Assembly: GCA_049999805.1 (NCBI GenBank)
Contig: JBNGIO010005874.1
Coordinates: forward strand, 29,609 to 93,608
Direction of reading: 5' to 3'
DNA: 64,000 nt
From: Folioceros fuciformis
Taxonomy: Eukaryota
Under the pieces are notes generated by a model that saw only the letters and a program-made list of their open reading frames with translations, made no database searches and had not been told where the DNA came from. Below are positions 20,208-31,493 of this stretch, piece after piece (position 1 is the stretch's first letter; the number at the start of each line of letters is the position of its first letter). A program made the translations under genes and the position numbers.

Positions 20208-22560
20208 AGAGACAGGGATAATGTAGCAGCACACTTACAAGGTCCTGGCTGTTCCGCAGCTTGGAGGCCACAATTTCAGACTGAGCTAGAAAGCCAAGGT
20301 TCTCACAACCCATCTGTGAATCCCAACCGTGCCGAGGGCAAGAAAAGGTCTAGGGTTCAAACTTCAATTCAAGGTGATTCATCACTCATTGACGAAGATA
20401 ACACAGGGAAAAGGTGGGACGAATCTGAATTGCTCATATTGGTTTCTGTATGAAAGGAGGATGTTATGAAGAACAGGGACGGCAGTATGAACGAAAAGAT
20501 GACTCCTGCCAACACAAGATGGGCTGTAATTTCAACTTCATGTGCAAGCCATAAGGTATACAGGATGACGAAGCAATGTCGTGATCGCTAGGAAGCTCTC
20601 ATGACGGAATTCAATAAAGTCCAAGATTGGGAGTGACCTCGTCACAATTCAGGACGGAGCAGCTATTGGAATATGGAGAAGGCTGAGAGAATTGCTCAAA
20701 AGGTGCCCAAAGCCTTCCTGCGGACCATGTATGAAGCCATGTATGTGTTCTAATGCAACAAGGCAGTCAATGCCAATGGGACTTGAAGCAGTTCAAGCGG
20801 AAAGATTGGAGGACAGCGGGCTTCCTATCGCCTGGGAAAGATCGCTGGAATCACTCGTGCCCATGGGGAAGGTGAGTCTTTAGGGTCCGTGAGAGGCTTA
20901 GAGGTGGATGTATCAGTGGCTTTGGCAATTCCCGGGTACCATCGGGTAGGGGAGCGCTCTCGGAGCGCCTTGTCTTGAGTTTTGGGCTCAAGGCCAGTTT
21001 CCCCCTCTCTTGTGGTACTCGATTTATGTACATACGTGAGCAGGGTTTTCCTTTGTATTGTAAGTGGGAGGAGTCTTCCACTTATAATCAGAATTATATT
21101 TTTTTGCGAAAAAAATGCCAATGAGACTTTTGATAGCACTAAACTAAACAGTGGTAGTGGGAGCTCGGGTAATATCAGACAAGTAGATTCTGAGTGTTGC
21201 CTTGAGCCGGACCCCTAAGTGCAGACAAAGTAGATTCTGAGTGTTGCCTTGAGCTGGACCCCCAAGTGCAGGTATAACTATTTGGAGACGATGGGGAGCA
21301 AGAACATGCCTCAACCTGGAAAGGTAAAAAGAGGAAAACATCGAAGGACTCCACGATCATTGGATTGGTGCCCATGATGAAGGAGAATCATGCTGCAAAA
21401 CTAGAAGCCATAAGGGAAGCTAAGGAGAATCAGAAACAACGACATAAGGAACTCTTAGACTAAGAGCGTGACAAGATAGCATCCATTACAGCAATGGAGC
21501 AAAGGAAAATTGAGGTGTATGAGTGTACCGAGGAGAAAAGATTGCAAGCTAACTCTGAATTTGGGTGGAAAGTGGTCCAGGCAATGACCGACATATCTCT
21601 TTGGATCCGAAGTCTTAGTTCAACTATCATAGAGGTAGCCCATATCAAGAAAGGGTAGGTAGAACTTACACAACATTTATTTCTCAACAACAAAGGATTA
21701 AACATATGGTTTCTAGTCCATTGCTCCATAACATGTGCATCAAGATGTCTCTCAACCTGTGACCTTCGGCACTTCTAGGGCTATGAAGTTTCAATGCATG
21801 CCATCTTCTTCATCGTCCTCCTTGCCTGCCAACAATCTTGGATCTATCTCATCACCACTATATACCCGAATGTTGTGCAGTAACACACAAGCATAAGTCA
21901 ACGCATTGAAGTAGTTGATGTTGCCTCGCCACACTTTCCTACCTAGTATCTGCCAAACTTTTTCGAGTGCTTCGAAATCGTCCTCAACAACCATACAAGA
22001 AGAGGATAGCTTGAAGTTAAAAGACTCTTTGTCTGCCATCAAACTTTGACCAGGAAAGGGGATGATCAACCATGGAAGCAAAGAGTAGCCAACATCTTCG
22101 ATGATATACTCTCGCACTTTCTCCGATGATATACTCTCGCACTTCCTTGTTATCCACGAGCATGGATGGTCCATTCAACCATGCACCTCCATTGACTTGG
22201 TGATAGAACTCTGAGTTGTATAGAATTCTCGTATCATTTGCAGCTCTTGGCCAACCTATTACTACATCTAAGAACTTATTAGGGCCTACGATACCCTGCA
22301 TTGTGAAATCTTTNNNNNNNNNNCATTGTGAAATCTTTGTATCTTCCTCGATACTCCCATTGGTTTTCTCAAAGATAGTTCGAGCCGGAAATGGGTCACA
22401 TCGATGGCAGCACAACAGTTCATGAAGCCATGTAGTTCAAAGAATCCTGCCTTCACTTCATCTAATTGACCTATTGATGGCCAAGCAAGGTGATGCCTAG
22501 CCTTCTGTATGATTGCTTTGACAAAACGGTGAGTAATTATGCAGGCAATTGACTTGTCCC
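19740..22560. mobile_element. Degenerate PIF/Harbinger DNA transposon (Myb/trihelix ORF on +, HARBI1-type DDE transposase on -)
   Basis: + strand ~20400-20740: KRWDESELLILVSV*...RWAVISTSC...TKQCRDR*EAL..EFNKVQDWE*...SYWNME (Myb/SANT-like, with stops). - strand 21791-22560: NCCAAIDVTH, FLDVVIGWPRAANDTRIL, YIIEDVGYSLLPWL, FNFKLSS, ACVLLHNI (DDE_Tnp_4-like), frameshifted and 5'-truncated. The left boundary is a guess. Confidence 0.85.
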
Positions 22561-22564
22561 ACTC

Positions 22565-22631
22565 TGAAGCTTTCTCTTTATTCCGAAGCTTTCTCTTTAT
22601 TCCGAAGCTTTCTCTTTAGTCCGAAGCTTTC
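22565..22631. repeat. 19-bp tandem repeat (gaagctttctctttattcc), about 3.5 copies, at the truncation point of the transposase
   Basis: Directly visible. Confidence 0.9.
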
Positions 22632-23035
22632 AGGTAAGTAGACAAAGCTATCACCTGTGGTCAAGTCTCCTTAAGGCAATGGCATCTGGTTTCTGCACAG
22701 AGATAATCCTCCTGTGATGTTCACGAATCGAGGAACTGGAGTCGGTCAAGAACGTCATAGGAACTGGAGTCGGGTCAAGAACGTCATGAACTACGTTCAC
22801 ATGAAAAAAATCCCCGGAGAAAGCGCTCAGGGTCCGGGCTGCATGGGAACCTAGCATTACTGGACTTATCTGGTACAGATTGAAGTGACCTTAGTGAACC
22901 TCCCTTAACTATCGTCATGCTCGGACAGCCCTAAACGTCGACTGGCTCTGGGTCTGTTGTTGTGCAGAGGGGATGGCGTCTGAATAGCGTGTTGCAGACT
23001 GGATTCAGCCTTCGGGGCTTCCGCTCGGGGTAGTG

Positions 23036-23914
23036 ATGTCGAAGGTAGCGAAAGCGTTGTCGAGGGTTCCAAAGAAGAATCGTTTCGGATCCCATGAGAG
23101 CCTGCTTCGATCCAGCGGGTGGCTGGCGGACAAGCTGTCTGCAGAGTCAGGTTCGGGAGAAGCAGGTGCTCGAAGCAGATCCACGCCGTCCTTGACGTAT
23201 TTGGCTATGCTGCATTATTTCCGTTGCAAGAACCACCTGGGGTTCAACGCGGATTCTGTTCTACAGTCTGTTGGCCAATTTGTGAAGAATGGCGGCGATG
23301 CGCCAAGTGTTTCCAGGACAGTCACGGGTGTTGCAGCGGTGAGAAGAGGAGCTAATGTTTCCGGCGGCGCTAGCTATTCCAGATTGCTGTATCAGGATGT
23401 GAACTTGAAGCAGTATTTGAGCACGGTGCAGCCTCCAAGGAAAAACTCCACCGGGTTGCGTCCCGGCAGGGTTGTTGTTCATCACTACCCGCAGAAGACG
23501 GCTGTCCATCTGTTTACTCCGGATGAAGTGTCGCCGCAAACGTTGAAGCAAGTGGCGTCGGTGTTGTCTGCTGCCTCGAATTGTAGTGTTGTTTTGAGAA
23601 CTGTGAAGATGCAGTCCATCTACCAAAGTGCTTCCTTGATTGCTCAGGACATCTGTTTACAGCTGGAACAGAGGAAACAGTTTCGGAGCATTACGCAAGC
23701 ACTTTTCAAGCAGTTGAAACGGGAGCCTTATGTTGAGGGAATTCGAGTCATATGCTCGGGGAGGATTAACGGCGCGCTGATAGCTCGCAGTGAAAGACGA
23801 GGCTATGGTCCTCTGACTTTGCAGTCTTTCAGCGCTAAAGTGGAACACGCCCAGGCTCAAGCCCAGCTTCCTTACGGTATCCTTGGAATCAAGGTTTGGG
23901 TGAGCTACGTGTGA
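23036..23914 (+). CDS. rps3: Nuclear-encoded mitochondrial ribosomal protein S3 (uS3m), intronless, apparently with rearranged segments
   Basis: YSRLLYQDVNLKQYL...GLRPGRVVVHHYPQKT (plant mitochondrial S3 N-domain signature) and S3_C domain SIYQSASLIAQDI..LEQRKQFRSI..VEGIRVICSGRINGALIARSE..YGILGIKVWVSY. Confidence 0.9.
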   Translation: MSKVAKALSRVPKKNRFGSHESLLRSSGWLADKLSAESGSGEAGARSRSTPSLTYLAMLHYFRCKNHLGFNADSVLQSVGQFVKNGGDAPSVSRTVTGVAAVRRGANVSGGASYSRLLYQDVNLKQYLSTVQPPRKNSTGLRPGRVVVHHYPQKTAVHLFTPDEVSPQTLKQVASVLSAASNCSVVLRTVKMQSIYQSASLIAQDICLQLEQRKQFRSITQALFKQLKREPYVEGIRVICSGRINGALIARSERRGYGPLTLQSFSAKVEHAQAQAQLPYGILGIKVWVSYV

Positions 23915-24477
23915 CGAGGAATAGGGGAGTTCACCATCTGAGTAGTGAGGGCAAAGCGTGCTGTGAGCATGATGGAGGGGATAACAAGGCGAGCGGACCC
24001 CGGGCATCTGGTTTGTGCAATCTGGGGCTATGAGCTCCCATCACGTCTAAGTTAATGTGGTGGACATGCATTAGCCAGTACTATGCTGTGAGAAACTTTT
24101 TCTCACCTGCTGATTCGGGTCTGCCTTTCAAGTGTAGCCTCCCCCTCCTGGCCAGGGAGAAACGCAGCACAAAGCTACAGGCTGCAATGGAGCGGGCAAG
24201 GATGGGCACTCTGTTTACCATTCAGCTTCTGTAGAGCAAGAACCTGGGTGCGGATTGGTAGGAAGAAACTGGGTGTCGATTGGTAGCAAGTACACAACTG
24301 TAAAGGTAGACGACGAAGAAGTCTTGCACAATTCGATATAGACGTTCTTTACGTACCAACAAGGAATTTAAGTGACAACGCACAATGTACAGGCATCTTA
24401 GAGCTTAAAACGCTTGGCCAACTCTACGGACATATCAGACGAGATTTCCCAACCAACACGGAACTTGCCATTCTTGG

Positions 24478-27400
24478 TTAATCAACGTCCTCCTGAGGCT
24501 TGACAAATCGCACCGGCACGGCTGGTATGCTATACCACCATTCCCTGAACCTGCGAATCAATCGCTCCGTGTTTTCCTCTCGGAGTTGCAGTCGCCTGGT
24601 GAAGAGTTCCCAGAATGCCACCAAGAAGATGAATCTAAAGGGGACTAGGGCGAAGACTAGTGCTAGGCCCAAAAGGACAGCAACCACTGTGTTCGTAGCC
24701 TGAAGAGAATTCGAATGCGTGCAATCAGAGACACCCTACAGAGCAGATATTTGCGCCGAAAATGCCTAACAGGAGTAAAAACATATTTGAACATGGTTTA
24801 TACCTGTGGGTATGCCGATAAGCCGATAGACCTTACTTTCAGAAGCAAAATGTTGGCACTCTGGAGTAGTCCTTCAACTTGTGCGAGAGCTTGCTGCAGT
24901 GCCAACAACTGCTGTACACTGTTCTGTCCCTGAGGGGTAGATACCACGAGCTCCACATTTCCATGGTGACGGCCTGACCGAAGCCAGACTATCAAACCGA
25001 CAGCAGATAACAACAGTAAAGGGATACAGTAGTCCAACCAATCTCTGCACCAAAATTCAAGTTAGAGTCCGCTTGCCACAGCAGCATACGATTCAGAAAA
25101 ACAGACTCTTGAAACGGCTGCAAAATTTCGGACCTGTAGACAATGTATGTAACAAGTCCACAAAAGAATAAGGTCTTGCTAGGTTCCTCCCAGGCGAGGA
25201 GTGCTTGAAACCACGTTAGTACACTGACGACGGGTAGCAGCAACTCCTGTGCACAACAGTTAGGGTTAGCCCAAGCATGAGACCCAAACACCAGAGGCTA
25301 TGCAACACCCTCAACAAACACCACACTCATGCAGCTGGACTTTGGTTCCCAACAAATCATCTGGGCATACCCGCACAGGCAAGCAAGAGGGAAGGGAAAG
25401 ATATCTCCTCACGGATTACCTGTAGTACCGCAAAATTTGTACCAATGCCTTTGGCATCAACTTTTAATCCGTCAACACTAGCTTTAGCCAGCTGCACCTT
25501 CCGATGACTGTCCCGCGACTGGACTACCGCTTTCTCCAGAGGAGTAAGCTCGCCAATCAGGACCTCTCCCACACACACTGGCTGCTCCTTCTGTGCCCTT
25601 TTTGGGCTGTTCACAGCTAAACTGTCAACAGCATGCACTGCTGACGTAGAGGAAATCGGATAGCCATCTTGCCGAGTGAAGTAATTGTCCATGTAATCAT
25701 TGCTACCAATCTCAGCTGCATGCAGCCTGTCAGCTAGTGCTTTCAAAACCAGATCCCCACCTGGTATCTCTTCTGCCAATGAGAAAGTCAGGAGTTTTTC
25801 TGGTCTTACAGGCAAGGTGCGAAAGACCTCTTTTGTGGCTCGTAGGCGAGCAATGCCAAGAACAGCCTTTGCAAGGGCCTCTGCTCTACCCACACTTTCA
25901 AGCTGATTGCCTCTGATGAACTGATGTACAAAAATAACTTCTCGAATGATGGACAACCAGTATTCACGCCTGGTTCTTCCCACCAGTTCTGGAAACTCCA
26001 ACACGACCGGCTCAGGCCTGCAAAATATGTTTCCGCTGTCTCAGAGGCTTTGAGCTGAGAAAAGTGGAGAGAAAACAGATAACATACAGAAAAAAAACGC
26101 TTACGTAGAAGGAGACTTGTACAACACAGCCTTGTCAAACAGGCGAGCACCCCAAGGACCAGTTAATACCGGTTTGACTGTGTGGCGAAGGTCAGCAGAC
26201 AGATCATACTTCTTAGCTTTGTCATAGGATACAACACCCGTTGCTTCAAAGTAAAGTGCTTGATCTGTCAATGTTAGCCGCCCTGCAAAACCAGAATGCA
26301 ACACATCATTCCGAGGAAATAAAGGTTGAAAGGTAAGTGCGGGAACAAAGCTAAGTGCATTTTTGATCGACAAAACGAAACAGATCCAGACCGGGCCAAG
26401 TAGAAAGTCCAATATGTTGCAAGACTGGCTGAGTTGTGGCAGTTCCATCGATGTCTATGACTGTCTCTCCTGGTGCAAGTTTGAGAGTTGTGACCAGATT
26501 TGTTGTGACTTGCTTCTTTATCCCCTTGATTGACCTTCATGGCAGCCAAGAATTCCAGCTTATAAGCTGCAATGTAGAAGCTGTGGACCAGGCAACACAA
26601 AAACACGCCACCTTACAGGTCTATGAAACTGGCATAGGAAAACATCAATAGCCTCACTTATCAAGCTCTCCCAGGTATTTGTCCCAGACCGGGAAGGCTA
26701 GCCGATTGCCAGTCGATGAGGTGAGAGCTTCAAACTGGCAGTGCACACTGATTGTATCCGCAGCCACAGGTATGGCCGGGGCCAGCCTTGCAAATGATTC
26801 CAGGCCCACTGTGCTTTCAACGTCTACCTGCAAAGGGTCAAGTTGACCACATAAGTTGCTAAGCGAACAACACAACTCTCGAAAAGTGCGAGATGCTTCT
26901 CTAAGTGTAGTTCATTGAGATTTATATGGCCAGTGCATCTTACAACAGTTCTGACCAGGCGGCAACGGATACCCGCCACATACAATGAAGGCTTTAGTTC
27001 TAGCTTCCCAAGTCCCAATTACCTTTGCTAGCATTGGCATCAAATCAGTATAGAACAAAGCCGGGTCCTCATCATCATCATCATCACCATCCTCATCCTC
27101 ATCCTCATCCCCATCAACCTCCAAGGAGCCTTGATTGGATTTGCTGGAATCATCATCAGTCTGTCATGACAGGTAGGGGGTGCGGATATTAACGAATCCA
27201 TGTGATTGAGCAATATTCCCCCACCCCCTCGCTGTTAATACAACTCAGCTGCAACAGTTCATGCTCTGCCTACATTTCCTTGTCCTCAGATCAGCTTCTT
27301 TGAGCCTGTTAAATATCACATTCCGTAACTGATGTAAACCAGCTAGTATGCAATACGTGCTTCCTTCATTAGAACTAAACGCTTGCAGGAAATCAGAGAG

Positions 27401-27927
27401 TCAGCATCGAATATTAGTGCCTGACCTTCACAGCCGGCTTATTTGCAACACCAGGGGCATCCCAGGCTAGCATCATGTCGAACGTGAAGCGTCGAAAATC
27501 CCTGTCATGCAAATGGTCCGTAACCGTGGCAATTGCAAGCGCCTTGAAGCAGCAGTACTCCAAAAGATTGCGTGCATATCGTGCTGGCTGCTTAGCCGAA
27601 GCAGGTGCCTCATCATCAAAATCCCTCTGCAAATCCTCGGTATCCAACACGAGAATCCTGCAAGCAAACCATCAGCGTCTCTCCAACTCCAATCCTCCTC
27701 ACGCTCCAGCACACTCCAACACCCAAACACAGAACCAAAAAAACAGGCCCTCACCGTGCACATTTCCCTACGACAACATTTGCCAGCGAAGAAAGTTCCT
27801 TGATCCACTTCCGCCCTGACGAAGTCCGCCCTAGGCTCCGTTGACTGTCATCCTTGTATGTGCTCTTCACCGACTGGTCTCCCATGAGGGACTCCATGAA
27901 AACCCTGCCCTTGTTCAGCAGCGCCAT
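24478..27927 (-). CDS. DUF639-family plant protein (multi-exon)
   Basis: MALLNKGR...KWIKELSSLANVVVGKCAR; YARNLLEYCCFKAL..FRRFTFDMMLAW; STVGLESFARLAP; GRLTLTDQALYFE; LTGPWGARLFDKAVLYKS; EFPEL..RREYWLSIIREV; GIGTNFAV; RRFREWWYSIPAVPV. Confidence 0.92.
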
Positions 27928-29841: not shown

Positions 29842-31071
29842 TCATGATTGGGTTTTTAGGAGCCCGGGTTTAGCCTCCTTGAATCTTTTCTGGTCTTGTA
29901 TCATGCTGTCGAAGACATCCAGGAGAGTGTCCAGGCCCTGGGTTTCTGGTTCCAGCACTCGCAGGGCAAACACAATGCTCTCGATTGTGGAGAGGCAGCC
30001 AGGCTTGGGCTGCCGCCTGACACACTGTGACATACTCGGTGCAGCTGTTGACAACTTGAAGTGCGGGAGAGAGTGAAGCCAGGGATTCTCGCAATAAATT
30101 CTGCGGGCCTTGGACCAGGTTCCGTCCAGGACGATGAGGTGGTTCACTACTGGGAGGTGGGAGACGCTACCTGCCGTCTCTCCATGTCCAGCAAGCTCTG
30201 GGGATGATGCCTCAGCTCCTCCGATGGAGGGTGACAGATGAGGCAGCAGCTCCACGGCATTGTCTGTGGGGTACAGCAGCCCTGTCCCTTCCGGCAACCT
30301 AATCCAAGATGGGACTGCAGACATGTCACCACTATTCCGAACCTGCTCAGAGACCTCTGCTGTTTCTCCATCATCCAAGCTGCCTACAGAGGGAGCGTAG
30401 GCAGAAACCCTAGATCTCCCGGACTTCTTCATGCTCACCTCCTGATACTTCTGCTGCACCTGCAGCTTCTTTCCTCCCCTTCCAGCAATGCTCCTCTTGG
30501 ATCCAGGAACCTTGGGGCGGATCCTGTAAGAAACCTGCTCATCAACCTCCGGGAGAATGATGAGCTGCACATTCTGAAGACTCAGCACGGCTATCCTGGC
30601 GGATCCCAGAGCATGGTCCCTCTCCTCAGGGTGCTGCAAGATGGTCACCCCAACCTGGTTCTTCACCACGTACTTGATCCTTCCACAGATGCAAAGAGAT
30701 GCTGGCTTCCTGCACATGACACAGAAGGGCCGCCTAGGTCTTGGCTCTCCGCTCAGCTCAACACCGTCTGCAGCATCGGTTCCTGATCCTTCCACAAGGA
30801 TGTCCTCCCCATTTGAACTCCCTCCCTTAATTCCTCGGCTAATCTTCCGTCCTTTCTCTCGTCCTTCCACAGTTGAGATACTTGGAGTGCAACACCGCTG
30901 TTCTTGTACAGACCCGCTTGACACGCTAGCGCACCTTGCTGAGAACTCTATGGCACCGTTAACAGAGCTGTGCTCACTCATCATCCCCGACGAATCCAAA
31001 TCACCCAGCGGTGGTTTCCACAAGCAGGCCCTGGGGCTCAATGCATCCATGCTCAGTCTCAATGACAGCAT
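29842..31071 (-). CDS. DTW-domain tRNA-uridine aminocarboxypropyltransferase (DTWD2/TapT-like), intronless
   Basis: CVMCRKPASLCIC, VTILQHPEE, LLYP, LIVLDGTWSKARRIY..NPWL, VRRQPKPGCLSTIESIVFAL, FDSMIQDQ; start codon uncertain. Confidence 0.92.
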   Translation of the reverse strand: MLSLRLSMDALSPRACLWKPPLGDLDSSGMMSEHSSVNGAIEFSARCASVSSGSVQEQRCCTPSISTVEGREKGRKISRGIKGGSSNGEDILVEGSGTDAADGVELSGEPRPRRPFCVMCRKPASLCICGRIKYVVKNQVGVTILQHPEERDHALGSARIAVLSLQNVQLIILPEVDEQVSYRIRPKVPGSKRSIAGRGGKKLQVQQKYQEVSMKKSGRSRVSAYAPSVGSLDDGETAEVSEQVRNSGDMSAVPSWIRLPEGTGLLYPTDNAVELLPHLSPSIGGAEASSPELAGHGETAGSVSHLPVVNHLIVLDGTWSKARRIYCENPWLHSLPHFKLSTAAPSMSQCVRRQPKPGCLSTIESIVFALRVLEPETQGLDTLLDVFDSMIQDQKRFKEAKPGLLKTQS

Positions 31072-31493
31072 AGGTGAGGTCCGAGCGACCGAACGCACAT
31101 GTCCTCTGAAGCCATCTTAGGAGGAGAACGACATGGCAGGGAGGTAAAAACCACAACTTTCAAGACCGACAGGCCTGACTCTAAAACCCTAGTTGCGCGG
31201 TCTTCGAGATGCACAAATTTTCTAGTATACAGGACTCCAGAGTAGCTGGTGGACTCATGACATCAACATGGAACACGAACACAGCAAAAAAGCTGTGTGC
31301 AAAACAGTCAAAGAGTCTGAATCTAGCATCTGCGATTCCCGTCTCAACTATCAAAGATTCTGCGGGTACCCACAGTCTATTTCCTCGAGCTTGCTATCTT
31401 CGTTACTATTTGCCTTTGAGGACGTGCTTTGTGAAGAATTGTCAGAACGGATGAGGCATAGATCAAGTGACCCGTCCGAAAAAGGAAGGTTCC

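Follow-up and report, generated by a model that had tools for sequence, protein, structure and literature searches.

A transcribed gene for mitochondrial-type ribosomal protein uS3 with an apparently rearranged order of conserved segments in a plant nuclear genome

The uS3 gene and its transcript

The window analyzed here is a 64,000-nucleotide stretch of Folioceros fuciformis DNA (contig JBNGIO010005874.1; coordinates are counted from its first letter), and our subject is an open reading frame (ORF) in it that encodes ribosomal protein uS3 of the mitochondrial type (uS3m), the product of rps3. The predicted protein, denoted P0001, carries the conserved parts of streptophyte uS3m in an unusual order, for which we use labels of our own: A is the uS3 N-domain, comprising A1 (the first ~26 residues) and A2 (the remainder); B1 and B2 are the conserved blocks of the insert that is present in streptophyte uS3m; and C is the remaining KH-like part together with the S3_C domain. 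Very likely, this is a transcribed, intronless nuclear gene that descends from a streptophyte mitochondrial rps3 and has its segments reordered as B1-B2-A-C.

The stop-to-stop frame of the ORF opens at 22988, and the ORF is covered by a contig of run X1 that matches the window at 100%, without a break from 22947 to 24698, and beyond that point leaves out six segments bounded by CT..AC. Because these correspond to GT-AG introns of a convergent gene on the minus strand, the contig represents spliced RNA; the RNA nature of this run and of run X2 is deduced from such spliced joints, there being no RNA label on the records. The X2 contig, from another organism (organism B), covers 22984–23912 with 91 base differences and no gaps (~90% identity) and continues into the same neighboring gene with the same joints. 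Thus, an intact ORF is transcribed and is conserved between species, as indicated by the RNA contigs of the two species, by an ortholog (P0002), and by the pattern of substitutions. The gene does not belong to a mitochondrial genome, given the adjoining gene with six GT-AG introns, the presence in the window of genes for a pentatricopeptide repeat (PPR) protein and a DTW-domain protein, and the G+C content of ~50%; the nuclear location proposed in the initial annotation, which was made from the letters of the stretch, is borne out by these neighbors. Apart from the ORF, no further rps3-like pieces were detected in the window by tblastn with eight reference proteins (all other matches had E ≥0.02).

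Assignment to the uS3 family

Residues 206–289 of P0001 match the Ribosomal_S3_C profile (PF00189) over its entire length (positions 1–83 of 83) with 69.8 bits, above the cut-off of 34.1, which places the protein in this family. The NCBIfam model TIGR01009 (rpsC_bact) aligns its positions 28–203 with residues 113–289 at 80.8 bits, below the equivalog cut-off of 114.5, and the first 27 positions of this profile are unmatched in P0001. No Pfam match to KH_2 was reported in the protein. Among sequences of solved structures, phmmer found 55 distinct chains that match P0001 at E ≤0.01, and the three best matches are uS3m of plant mitoribosomes, namely, 9gyt_B (E 4.3e-35) followed by 9evs_B and 6xyw_Bb. 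We take 9gyt_B and 9evs_B to be entries of the cauliflower mitoribosome of PMC12672651. In an AlphaFold2 (AF2) model built from a 50-sequence alignment, the predicted local distance difference test (pLDDT) score is mostly 88–97 over residues 113–292 and, within that span, mostly 89–95 over residues 113–168, with two blocks at 74–77. A Foldseek search with this model retrieved bacterial uS3 chains (E 5.5e-17, TM scores of 0.72–0.77 on the target) and 6xyw_Bb (E 8.5e-15), so that the core at 113–292 has the two-domain uS3 fold. The S3_C and TIGR01009 matches, the plant uS3m matches, and the modeled core together identify the product as a mitochondrial-type uS3.

A HMMER search of 1.84 billion representative proteins yielded 2306 matches at E ≤0.001. 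Among the 150 best of these, the only full-length match is P0002, with 290 residues and 70–72% identity. The named matches include P0005 from Blasia (liverwort, mitochondrial uS3m, 430 residues), P0011 from Bucklandiella (moss, 538 residues), P0032 from Chrysanthemum (561 residues), P0007 from Nitella and P0169 from Chara (270 residues), P0019 from Zygnema, P0017 from Gonatozygon, P0069 from Psilotum, and P0053 from Gnetum. The closest relatives are thus streptophyte mitochondrial uS3m, the best named ones being rps3 products of a liverwort, a moss, Charales, Zygnematophyceae, a fern, and seed plants. In a tree of 33 sequences, P0001 and P0002 are placed within the streptophyte clade or at its base, on a branch of length 1.09 that adjoins the join of the outgroup.

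Order of the conserved segments

When P0001 is compared by phmmer with 9gyt_B, 9evs_B, and 6xyw_Bb, residues 113–170 align with chain residues 27–82 and residues 170–291 with chain residues 418–539, that is, with the two ends of the plant proteins. Residues 50–92 (B2), which precede both of these stretches in P0001, align with residues 229–268 of 9gyt_B and 6xyw_Bb, a match that is weak when taken alone (8 bits, independent E 19). The sequence RFGSHESLLRSSGWLADK occupies residues 16–33 (23081–23134) and PSLTYLAMLHYFRCKNHLGF residues 51–70 (23186–23245); the N-domain-like stretch begins near residue 92 (23309), and S3_C follows it. The motifs typical of the insert (RYGY..LLR.SGW in B1; LNxxVMQYFF..KN...FDP in B2) are both recognizable in P0001, and the moss mitochondrial protein P0011 contains the corresponding RRYGYDDRLPSMHEIDQLLRISGWMASKKS and RAPLNHLVMQYFFHPKNQIRFDP. 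Hence, P0001, like P0002, reads B1-B2-N-domain-C-domain.

This order sets the two proteins apart. A pattern scan of 205 uS3-related proteins found 35 with both the A motif and B2, and A comes first in 33 of these; the two exceptions to the collinear order are P0001 and P0002. The relative order of the insert blocks themselves is invariant, with B1 ahead of B2 in all 28 proteins that have both, P0001 and P0002 included. At the A-C junction, the alignment (..HHYPQKTAVHLFTPDEVSPQTLKQVASVLS..) passes from the last strand of A straight into the helix that, in collinear proteins, comes after the insert, in agreement with the unbroken alignment to TIGR01009.

The order B-A-C had been put forward in the initial annotation and is upheld by the non-collinear phmmer stretches and by the collinearity of the other 33 proteins. 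The segment coordinates given there are exact with the ATG at 23036, and the motifs that it cited (RYGY..LLRISGWMA and LNxLVMQY..KN.I.FD) occur in P0011 and P0005, the mitochondrial proteins of a moss and a liverwort. As it had anticipated, residues ~14–92 show significant similarity to the central insert of mitochondrial uS3m, in alignments that break collinearity. It describes the insert as plant-specific; the insert motifs are not specific to land plants, being found also in Charales (B2) and in Zygnematophyceae (a B1-like block and B2).

Table 1. Coding segments, transcript parts, and other features of the window around the rps3 gene
Feature	Coordinates	Strand	Basis
CDS (coding sequence), mitochondrial-type uS3 (P0001); 292 codons and stop, intronless	23036..23914	+	ORF, Pfam, uS3m matches, RNA cover
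Residues 1–13, basic amphipathic N-terminus, candidate mitochondrial targeting signal	23036..23074	+	Composition; conservation
Residues 14–35, B1 (KNRFGSHE..SLLRSSGWLADKLS), homologous to insert block RYGY..LLR(V/I)SGWMA	23075..23140	+	B1 profile, hhalign
Residues 36–47, variable B1-B2 linker	23141..23176	+	Low identity, non-synonymous changes
Residues 48–92, B2 (PSLTYLAMLHYFRCKNHLGFNADSVLQSVGQFV..), homologous to insert block LNxxVMQYFF..KNQ..FDP	23177..23311	+	phmmer, profile, hhalign
Residues 93–112, poorly conserved linker, possibly degenerate remnant of uS3m ~9–21	23312..23371	+	tblastn extensions
Residues 113–168, A2, uS3 N-domain from ~uS3m residue 27	23372..23539	+	Profile, TIGR01009, AF2
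Residues 169–292, C, rest of KH-like region and S3_C, joined to A2 without insert	23540..23911	+	Pfam, phmmer, Foldseek
5' UTR (untranslated region), minimum extent	22947..23035	+	Start of X1 RNA contig
3' UTR region, shared or abutting with 3' end of convergent DUF639-type neighbor	23915..24477	+	RNA contig
Upstream ORF, 4 codons (M-A-S-E-stop), in main-ORF frame, 48 nt before main ATG	22973..22987	+	
Tandem repeats upstream of transcript start (19 nt × 3.5; 29 nt × 2)	22566..22631; 22731..22787		
Tandem repeat in 3' UTR region (25 nt × 2.2)	24235..24290		
Short N run (assembly gap), ~0.6 kb before rps3 transcript, in overlapping ORFs of both strands	22286..22425		
Convergent neighbor, at least 6 GT-AG introns of 87–173 nt; terminal ORF ends at 24478	24478..27453	-	RNA contig
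DTW-domain ORF, 418 residues, tRNA-uridine aminocarboxypropyltransferase type	29845..31098	-	
PPR ORF, intronless, 1127 residues, PLS-class, E motif at end, no DYW reported	55098..58478	-	

P0026 (1183 residues) and P0033 (960 residues) are uS3m-like proteins with B1-like (LLRLSGW and LMRLSGW) and B2-like (YYVMHYFSLCKTN) motifs in collinear order; together with Zygnema P0019, these two proteins indicate that B1 and B2 are older than land plants. P0026 had been considered as a form with A joined to C and was rejected when inspection revealed the collinear order B1..B2..C. P0057 and P0199 (426 residues, Logan proteins from outside the window) represent a seed-plant-type uS3m that lacks the N-domain, with ~100 basic, presequence-like residues followed by B2, the insert remainder, and the C-domain; its branch, within the seed-plant clade, is long. 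These proteins may be another nuclear-transferred, N-terminally truncated rps3. P0105 was rejected as a second nuclear form without the N-domain; it groups with the mitochondrial protein of Psilotum and probably comes from a fern mitogenome, as an ORF that covers exon sequence only.

Significance of the insert homology

To assess the N-terminal homology beyond single alignments, we used a hidden Markov model (HMM) of the B1-B2 region built from 17 collinear land-plant sequences, with P0001 and P0002 left out, and searched a set of 10,004 sequences comprising residues 1–105 of P0001 and P0002, 10,000 shuffles, and 2 reversals. P0002 scored 23.1 bits (E 3.6e-5) and P0001 15.7 bits (E 0.0067), compared with 10.0 bits for the top shuffle; the B2 domain alone accounts for 21.8 and 13.2 bits, respectively. 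Against the 968 stop-to-stop ORF pieces of the window, the same model gave 12.4 bits for the rps3 ORF and 4.8 bits for the runner-up. When the two N-termini were compared with the insert alignment using hhalign, a single collinear alignment was obtained that runs through B1 and then B2 (query 8–101; 95.6% probability, E 1.1e-8). With a profile of B1 alone (30 training sequences), P0001 and P0002 ranked 1 and 2 of 10,002, at 13.3 and 10.3 bits, ahead of the top shuffle at 9.8. These profile comparisons confirm, at the level of sequence, that the non-collinear homology of the P0001 N-terminus to the insert is real.

The two blocks are also under stronger constraint than their surroundings. Identity between P0001 and P0002 is 67% over residues 1–15, 60% in B1, 25% in the linker at 36–47, 62% in B2, 35% over residues 93–112, 79% in A2, and 84% in C. 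Among the differences listed from organism B, all those in residues 16–31 and 48–79 are synonymous, whereas the linkers have non-synonymous changes in 4 of 12 codons (36–47) and 6 of 20 codons (93–112). Judging from these alignments, the linkers have drifted and the cores of B1 and B2 have been preserved; in collinear proteins, conservation of the B1 and B2 residues reaches from Charales to angiosperms. The arrangement occurs in at least three taxa, because a P0001-type gene is carried by the window and by organism B as well as by the organism from which P0002 comes. A search of metagenome contigs with the two-sequence alignment produced 132 pattern matches, none of which was confirmed.

Fate of the original N-terminus

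The initial annotation had the ancestral N-terminus in the interior of the protein. This is correct from about residue 27 of uS3m onward, but the first ~26 residues are not detectable anywhere in P0001. A profile of the first 80 residues of uS3m aligns its positions 27–74 with residues 113–164 (42.9 bits, E 6.1e-15), and the alignment extends no further upstream than residue 113. Gapped tblastn extensions with four references do reach mitochondrial residue 9 at residue 101 of P0001 (window position 23336), and the stretch upstream of residue 113 could be, at best, a decayed remnant of the uS3 N-terminus. The first ~26 residues of uS3 thus appear to have been lost or to have degenerated, without a recognizable form in P0001.

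The detectable homology to A starts 2–3 residues past the position of the group II intron rps3i74g2 (codon 25), which is reported to occur in Charophyceae, hornworts, and tracheophytes (PMC10012718). No remnant of a group II intron was found before A2 by an Rfam search of 22600–24400, whose three matches all fell far short of their gathering scores and concerned no intron family.

A possible origin of the new order

In the mitochondrial gene, the order is A, then a long insert with B1, B2, and variable filler, and then C. The variable part of the insert, which amounts to well over 100 residues in bryophytes and to more in seed plants, has been cut out cleanly in P0001, and because of this removal the A-C core is back at bacterial length. 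Circular permutation of A-B-C would not yield B-A-C, and therefore either end-joining of non-adjacent fragments or a duplication with two deletions has to be invoked. The new order would have arisen by one of these routes in the lineage of this plant, most likely a hornwort; no direct repeat that could be a trace of duplication was found at the DNA level in 22900–24000.

The resulting protein would be imported into mitochondria by its basic amphipathic N-terminus, as the composition of residues 1–20 suggests (6 K+R, no D+E, net charge +6, helical hydrophobic moment 0.81). B1 and B2 would remain in the mature protein and contact the head protuberance of the small subunit (SSU), and these contacts would be independent of the point at which the blocks are attached to the core; the variable filler of the insert would be dispensable. 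B1 and B2 can be regarded as the functionally important part of the insert because they were kept by selection while more than 100 residues were discarded.

Weighing the alternatives

Several observations weigh against the order B1-B2-A-C or limit how far it can be taken. The N-terminal region is only weakly similar to single collinear proteins (best 12.8 bits; 8 bits for chains from the Protein Data Bank, PDB). The B1-profile test is partly circular because the training sequences were chosen by a regular expression written after the motif had been seen, and P0002 exceeds the top shuffle in this test only narrowly (10.3 vs 9.8 bits). In the AF2 model, pLDDT is below 50 at residues 14–109, and hence the model lends no structural support to docking of B1/B2. 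A predicted complex of the core (113–292) with residues 10–95 had a score of 0.01 (mark, 0.34), which speaks neither for nor against docking; for the collinear Nitella protein P0007, AF2 produced a poor model (mean pLDDT 63.6) with a helix-turn-helix pattern over B2, as in P0001. The comparison with organism B comprises at least 34 differences in 29 changed codons up to 23383, the listing being assumed complete to that position, and the breadth of the arrangement amounts to three taxa and one ortholog sequence (P0002). The tree position of P0001 and P0002 is flagged as a possible long-branch artifact and gives no placement within land plants, and the link between the nuclear gene and the hornwort mitochondrial rps3 pseudogene is one that we infer. 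Finally, a global MAFFT alignment of 50 sequences sets residues 13–32 against the uS3 N-terminus.

The last point suggests a different parsing, in which residues 13–32 are the original N-terminus (KVNPISVRLNLNRSSDSSWFSD) and only B2 has moved, giving A1-B2-A2-C. Such an assignment would be consistent with the placement of K13, R20, W29, and D32 under K4, R11, W22, and D25 of collinear proteins in the MAFFT alignment and with the position of these residues near the protein N-terminus. However, a profile of the first 34 residues from 108 collinear sequences gives residues 1–46 of P0001 -1.6 bits and rank 3099 of 10,002 and does not report P0002, whereas the B1 profile ranks the two proteins 1 and 2, so that B1 is the better assignment for residues 13–32. 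Together with the collinear hhalign match at 8–101 over both B1 and B2, this renders the order A1-B2-A2-C decidedly improbable. It could be argued, too, that the likeness to the insert is due to chance or convergence and that the gene is a regular case of transferred rps3 that acquired an unrelated presequence, considering how short the motifs are and how weak the single pairwise matches (independent E 19, PDB chains). An accident of this kind is exceedingly unlikely given that the profile and profile-profile scores exceed those of all 10,000 shuffles and all other ORFs of the window, that B1 precedes B2 as in 28 of 28 sequences with both, and that the match is stronger in P0002 than in P0001.

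The role of B1-B2 in the protein is a separate matter. The two blocks, although homologous to the insert, could serve only as a cleaved targeting peptide, if a stray second rps3 fragment had come to form the gene's 5' end. Transferred organelle genes often acquire presequences from whatever sits upstream, and the N-terminal position of B1-B2, the net positive charge, and pLDDT below 50 over residues 14–109 would fit this origin. We nevertheless consider it unlikely, because the cores are 60–62% identical to P0002, compared with 25–35% for the linkers, only synonymous core changes occur among the listed differences from organism B, and collinear proteins from Charales through angiosperms conserve these same residues. 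Moreover, presequences usually preserve composition and not motifs, and a plant mitochondrial presequence of more than 90 residues would be long. A nuclear copy of mitochondrial DNA that has no function, or a chimera produced in assembly, might also be considered, since plant nuclear genomes often contain rearranged, mosaic insertions of organelle DNA. However, the ORF is intact in RNA contigs of two species without gaps, has a 290-residue ortholog at 70% identity (84% in the C-domain), shows substitutions of the purifying type relative to organism B, and has no second rps3-like piece in the window. We attach next to no probability to a copy without function.

The missing ~25 residues, which correspond to exon 1, are among the most conserved parts of uS3, and one could imagine a uS3m assembled from two genomes. 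In this scheme, the mitochondrial 'pseudogene' that keeps rps3i74g2 would still supply the ~25-residue exon 1 product in trans to a nuclear B1-B2-A2-C chain, the nuclear gene would have been put together at the DNA level from fragments of exon 2 only, and B1-B2 would be a module that docks at the mS31/46-mS35 head protuberance irrespective of its position in the chain. As a whole, this scheme seems quite improbable. By comparison with these alternatives, a nuclear gene with the order B1-B2-A-C accounts for the segment homologies and their order, the expression, the conservation of this layout across at least three taxa, and the stronger conservation of B1 and B2, all of which are directly observed.

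Neighboring genes

The convergent neighbor of rps3 (Table 1) has a weak match to DUF639 (22.8 bits, compared with the Pfam threshold of 37.1) in the exon at 25419–26016. The 3' ends of the two genes are so near each other that RNA contigs of two species fuse both transcripts. Synteny is kept in organism B, in which the UTR at 23912–24317 is replaced by ~360 unlike bases. The protein encoded by the DTW-domain ORF has a top match at 64% identity and is 50–52% identical to its moss, 44–48% to its liverwort, and 48% to its lycophyte homologs, with lower values for ferns and seed plants, which points to a land plant as the source.

Comparison with known systems

Transfer of genes from organelles to the nucleus is a textbook event, in which segment order is normally kept and, at most, the gene is split. 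Hornwort mitogenomes are reported to contain only a degenerate rps3 pseudogene (PMC10012718). If the source is a hornwort, the P0001 gene accounts for the functional rps3 that is missing there. Selaginella lacks mitochondrial ribosomal protein genes. Among other lycophytes, Isoetes is reported to retain a mitochondrial rps3 (PMC2731911), and in Huperzia rps3 is listed among the functional ribosomal protein genes (PMC3325193). A hornwort would be the best-fitting source of the window. The titles and abstracts of the open-access papers and preprints found for rps3, uS3m, hornwort, and nuclear transfer mention no permuted nuclear rps3. A rearrangement of this kind appears to be rare for an organelle gene that has moved to the nucleus, and the gene appears to work. 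The described sequences suggest that contacts of B1/B2 in the head protuberance, near the mRNA entry, are independent of the attachment point, and P0001 is a naturally minimized uS3m that could serve in experiments on structure and import.

The SSU head protuberance of the cauliflower mitoribosome is described as consisting of uS3m, mS31/46, and mS35 (PMC12672651), and most of the uS3m insert is stated to be unresolved in an earlier structure (bioRxiv 10.1101/777342). The uS3m proteins encoded in plant mitochondria (6xyw_Bb from Arabidopsis, 9gyt_B/9evs_B, P0005, P0011) share with P0001 the N-domain from residue ~27, the C-domain, B1, and B2. They have, however, 430–561 residues in the order A-B1-B2-C, whereas P0001 has 292 residues in the order B1-B2-A-C, lacks the variable filler of the insert as well as the first ~26 residues, and is the product of a nuclear, intronless gene with a basic N-terminus. 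The uS3m of Charales (Nitella P0007 and Chara P0169, 270 residues) resembles P0001 in length and in having B2 with little filler, but there A precedes B2 and C follows it, the N-terminus of uS3 is intact, and no B1 is found by our pattern.

In Tetrahymena, uS3m is reported to be assembled from three genes in two genomes (PMC7326499), a case in which broken chain connectivity in and around the N-domain is tolerated, with mS31 adjoining; these are, however, separate protein fragments in an unrelated lineage, whereas the permutation in P0001 lies within one chain. In plants, uL2m is reported to be split into a mitochondrial N-part and a nuclear C-part (bioRxiv 10.1101/777342). The P0001 gene would resemble the transferred plant mitochondrial ribosomal protein genes, the split uL2m included, in replacing a mitochondrial gene and in having gained an N-terminal targeting sequence, and it also shares their faster evolution, seen here as a long branch. 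Unlike these transfers, which keep the order of segments or split the gene, P0001 reorders conserved segments within one polypeptide.

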